A DNA stretch of 64,000 bases. Origin: a virus. Taxonomy: Duplodnaviria; Heunggongvirae; Uroviricota; Caudoviricetes. The stretch is not shown here. The stretch covers positions 1-64,000 of IMG/VR virus record IMGVR_UViG_2775506858_000003, one strand, 5' to 3'. A report on this DNA, generated by a model with database tools, continues below.

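Follow-up and report, generated by a model that had tools for sequence, protein, structure and literature searches.

The HNH core and its protein family

We have analyzed the 457 amino acid protein encoded by the HNH gene (48009-49382, plus strand), for which the earlier note had proposed an HNH nuclease core. A profile search placed HNH_5 (Pfam PF14279) at residues 174-222, with a score of 41.5 bits against a cut-off of 27.5 (E = 1.2e-10), and the domain was matched in all 95 of the relatives that were aligned. These share only about 35% identity, yet all of them have C174, C177, H191, E195, N199, E207, C208, D209 and N212, and at least 90% have C211. The AlphaFold model of the protein is confident (pLDDT 90.8, pTM 0.87), and at the motif it is folded as strand-strand-helix, with strands at approximately 189-190 and 202-204 followed by a helix at 209-217. 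The invariant H191, N199 and N212, together with the β-β-α topology of the predicted model, are those of an HNH, or His-Me finger, nuclease. Both the profile search and the structure prediction that had been suggested as checks thus bear out the nuclease reading. One detail has to be corrected. The core had been read as containing a His-His pair, but it is an alanine that directly precedes the catalytic H191. This is atypical for HNH; in many HNH enzymes a metal ligand (Asp, Glu or His) precedes the catalytic histidine.

The gene had also been regarded as an orphan. In fact its family, when clustered at 50% identity, comprises at least 880 clusters with E ≤ 1e-30 and 2134 with E ≤ 1e-10. Most of the 150 best family hits listed are about 410-450 amino acids in length and match over the full length. 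Genome loci and homologues with a name come from Gamma- and Betaproteobacteria, Bacteroidota and Campylobacterota, as well as from some Firmicutes and a few archaeal bins. Among 2.9 million viral contigs, just 20 relatives turned up. Comparison of the HNH gene with its relatives gave dN/dS values of 0.14-0.41, indicative of purifying selection.

The nuclease core is flanked by an N-terminal (residues 1-165) and a C-terminal domain (residues 236-457), the latter having invariant Lys, Tyr and Trp residues. No fold match whatever was obtained for either, and none typical of modified-base readers. HNH_5 is the sole Pfam domain that recurs among the 95 aligned members, and the architecture they share includes no NTPase or other known domain. 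The protein matched zero PADLOC-DB v2.0.0 families at E ≤ 1, and nothing was returned by NCBIfam or a PDB sequence-profile search. The charges of the domains show no pattern of an acidic autoinhibitory domain. That the two domains might be duplicates of each other was ruled out by hhalign.

The two conserved noncatalytic domains, neither of them with a recognized DNA-reader fold, are packed compactly in the model with the small nuclease core, and they could also serve to restrain the enzyme. The N- and C-terminal domains would then keep the HNH off. Binding of a phage protein, or of a nucleic acid structure specific to infection, would set off indiscriminate DNA degradation and stop the infected cell. 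Characterized abortive HNH effectors use a separate sensor (PtuA, SAVED or ZorABC), and a separate conserved sensor partner is absent from the HNH gene loci. The protein itself has no NTPase, second-messenger-binding or STAND-type sensor domain. Sensor-gated single-protein nucleases are nevertheless known, for example Shedu (10.1101/2023.08.10.552793), and a location beside Mokosh, PDC-M26 and other defence loci would fit such a mechanism equally well. We consider triggered activity of this kind somewhat unlikely, but a serious contender.

Genomic neighbourhood of the relatives

Copies of the gene at 97-98% nucleotide identity directly follow Mokosh MkoA/MkoB (locus L091) or PDC-M26A/B (loci L095-L103). 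The DNA common to L091 and L095 starts 374 bp upstream of the gene, and the system further upstream differs between them. In Acinetobacter baumannii (L094) a 93-94% copy adjoins an Old/AriA-like ATPase, encoded on the opposite strand, next to Tn7-like tnsA/tnsB/tniB/tniQ. A 91% copy (L002) comes after a type III Mod/Res pair, and a 78% copy (L005) has an integrase and a Ppl-like gene as neighbours. The window itself contains bSEFIR (E = 1e-111), 6.8 kb to the right of the HNH gene. The search for homologues in defence islands that had been suggested as a check thus did find copies adjoining Mokosh, PDC-M26 and type III Mod/Res, which supports a defence role by context. As a crude control we counted PADLOC families, finding 94 for 92 ORFs located 7-10 kb away compared with 151 for 130 adjacent ORFs; since these rates are about equal, a formal enrichment near defence genes is not demonstrated.

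No conserved partner gene was found across approximately 77 loci, in agreement with the earlier proposal of a single-gene, perhaps stand-alone, nuclease. The largest cluster of neighbours is drawn from 5 loci, 4 of them in Bacteroidales; each of the 5 comes from a gut or rumen source, either a metagenome bin or an isolate. AAA_21 occurs in 3 of the 130 ORFs adjacent to relatives, and there is no ATPase beside the HNH gene in the window.

The unit shared between unrelated contexts barely exceeds the gene and its terminator, corresponding to 47988-49461 in L002-L004 and 47952-49474 in L094, and near-identical copies are present in a betaproteobacterium, Acinetobacter and wastewater metagenomes. 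This is the distribution that would be given by a selfish nuclease, i.e., a free-standing homing-type or addiction-type HNH endonuclease spreading its own cassette with no benefit to the host. We think this improbable. The gene occupies intergenic slots in islands rather than a position inside or beside a conserved target gene, and no repeated flanking target sequence was seen. Also against a selfish element are the size of the protein (420-450 amino acids), the conservation of two further domains, the purifying selection acting on it across phyla, and the scarcity of relatives in viral contigs.

IS elements and the history of the segment

The HNH gene and its terminator lie on a segment bounded by two IS ends. 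The complete IS (851 bp, 49533-50383, minus strand) encodes an IS5-type transposase, with NCBIfam transpos_IS5_3 scores of 157 bits for orfB (cut-off 110) and 59 bits for orfA, and with matches to Pfam DDE_Tnp_1 and DUF4096. It has perfect 16-bp terminal inverted repeats (21 bp at 95%) and is flanked on both sides by TA; two bases are a weak sign of target duplication. TA also precedes the IS end in 17 of 17 metagenomic copies. The left IS (47876-47941) is a remnant of 66-68 nt, of a different isoform from the complete IS, so that the pair does not amount to the two complete IS copies that define a composite transposon.

The homology to the L091 island starts at 47942, directly after one IS tip, and stops at 49532, directly before the other. 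Outside the IS ends the window flanks have no match to that island, a 13-nt likeness being within the range of shuffled sequences. Apart from the window, the IS-gene-IS unit was seen in L001 alone, whose sequence does not differ from that of the window and runs out within the IS ends. A search of the metagenome collection for the gene/IS junction gave nothing, and the HNH gene is absent from all 16 loci carrying this IS end. Megablast of the gene and the IS against plasmids gave no match, nor did the IS have a full-length match above 69% identity in PLSDB. The suggestion that the gene is decayed composite-transposon cargo is plausible. The homology does stop at both IS tips, but the isoforms differ, the left IS is a stump and no other site with the unit was found.

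The history of the segment can be partly reconstructed. The 1.59-kb segment probably derives from a defence island like L091 or L095, where the upstream system has been swapped and the gene has stayed in its slot. Two related IS5-family elements may then have entered at two TA sites, one 67 bp upstream of the gene and the other 150 bp downstream, and IS action would have moved or rearranged the segment to its place, with a decayed prophage on one side and a DarA-type polyvalent-protein block on the other. The composite-transposon step in this scheme is suggested by parsimony. The left IS would have been shortened to 68 nt later, and the unit is therefore no longer mobile as such.

This location raises the possibility of a role in DNA processing for mobile elements (packaging, transfer or recombination) and not in defence. 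The terminases of some phages are assisted by HNH proteins, the gene of the window lies between a terminase fragment and the polyvalent-protein block, and PHROG 26663 (of unassigned function) matches residues 169-352. However, IS ends and a differing GC content set the gene apart from both blocks, and its relatives are found beside defence systems in chromosomal islands and not in packaging or transfer operons, with neighbours that vary from locus to locus. Such a role appears very improbable.

The IS junctions bear on a further alternative of two forms, that the protein is a type II-like restriction enzyme with a methyltransferase that has been lost or is encoded elsewhere, or that the gene is silent or functionless here following the IS rearrangements. 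The junction 67 bp upstream of the ATG has removed the native −35 region together with all the sequence that preceded it, and no consensus promoter was called upstream of the gene. Nevertheless a perfect TATAAT hexamer is retained, the ORF is intact and its differences from 98%-identical relatives are mostly synonymous. As for a methyltransferase, the relative that comes right after the type III Mod/Res pair could be cited in favour, as could some neighbours that are methyltransferases or type IIG enzymes. These are rare (2-3 of 130 adjacent ORFs, with MTase_II models matching 2 of the 130) and of differing kinds; none recurs among the neighbours of relatives, and none lies beside the HNH gene in the window. 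Taken together, the two forms of this alternative carry little weight with us.

A candidate defence nuclease and its comparison with known systems

The HNH gene most likely encodes a single-protein nuclease that defends against foreign DNA with neither a partner gene nor a methyltransferase. A role as a defence nuclease of some kind is probable. We are more tentative about direct restriction, in which the flanking domains recognize invader DNA and the HNH cuts it. On such a mechanism the flanking domains would recognize a feature of the invading DNA in the manner of type IV enzymes, or serve in some other way to place the enzyme and permit its action. The C-terminal domain might be the likelier reader, given its conservation and invariant residues. 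The central Cys4-zinc HNH motif would then cleave the DNA, using H191 as general base, N199, and N212 as metal ligand, and host DNA would be spared because it lacks the recognized feature.

We found no description of the family in the literature on HNH_5/PF14279, single-gene HNH defence, Tn7-like cargo or DefensePredictor. No link to it was established for the HNH endonucleases of E. coli NILS69 (PMC12409345) or the END nucleases (PMC12191111). The locus may thus represent an undescribed but widespread single-gene anti-phage or anti-plasmid system, though we put this forward with less than even confidence. Two domains without known structural relatives would read the invader and license an Ala-His zinc-finger HNH nuclease, and the gene would hop between defence islands, a Tn7-like neighbourhood and IS-bounded segments across bacterial classes. 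The copies of 93-98% nucleotide identity in Vitreoscilla, A. baumannii and wastewater metagenomes show that a defence-type gene has recently passed between classes, carried by several vehicles. If the family is a working defence, a compact (~430 amino acid), partner-free nuclease would be added to the catalogue of bacterial immunity, and its two new domains would merit structural work on the logic of recognition. If it is inactive or selfish, the locus is simply a neat case of IS-driven scrambling of a defence island.

The arrangement in the window resembles Tn10- and Tn5-type composites in having cargo between inverted IS ends, here with identical 35-bp termini. It differs in that just 68 nt survive of the left IS, which belongs to another isoform, and since its outer end is missing the unit is now immobile.

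Among nucleases, the Septu protein PtuB and other ATPase-paired HNH_5 nucleases have the same Pfam domain type. PF14279 annotates the HNH partners of AAA_15/21 defence ATPases (PMC11464382), and the likeness extends to L094 with its Old/AriA-like ATPase. However, the HNH gene has no PADLOC PtuB match, no conserved ATPase neighbour and no adjacent PtuA ABC-type ATPase, and two further domains add about 390 residues to its protein. Shedu (SduA) is likewise a single polypeptide, in which variable noncatalytic domains regulate a nuclease core, and is resident in defence islands. Its nuclease is of the PD-(D/E)xK type (DUF4263), and no relation of sequence or fold to the HNH gene protein was detected. 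A survey of His-Me finger proteins (Jablonska et al., 2017, PMC5714182) describes a "Group 8" containing HNH_5 only, with no assigned function and 158 bacterial and 1 archaeal members. By this description it may correspond to the present family, which is now far larger.

Type II restriction-modification systems have an adjacent cognate methyltransferase, and the HNH gene does not. In this respect it resembles the type IV HNH enzymes EcoKMcrA and ScoMcrA. These too are solitary nucleases with a zinc-bound core that lack a cognate methyltransferase and occur both on mobile DNA and in defence islands. In those enzymes a C-terminal HNH lies behind modified-base readers (McrA N-domain, SRA, SBD), whereas here the HNH is central and the flanking domains match no solved structure or Pfam family. 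We propose that the HNH gene may nonetheless behave in a modification-dependent, type IV-like manner.

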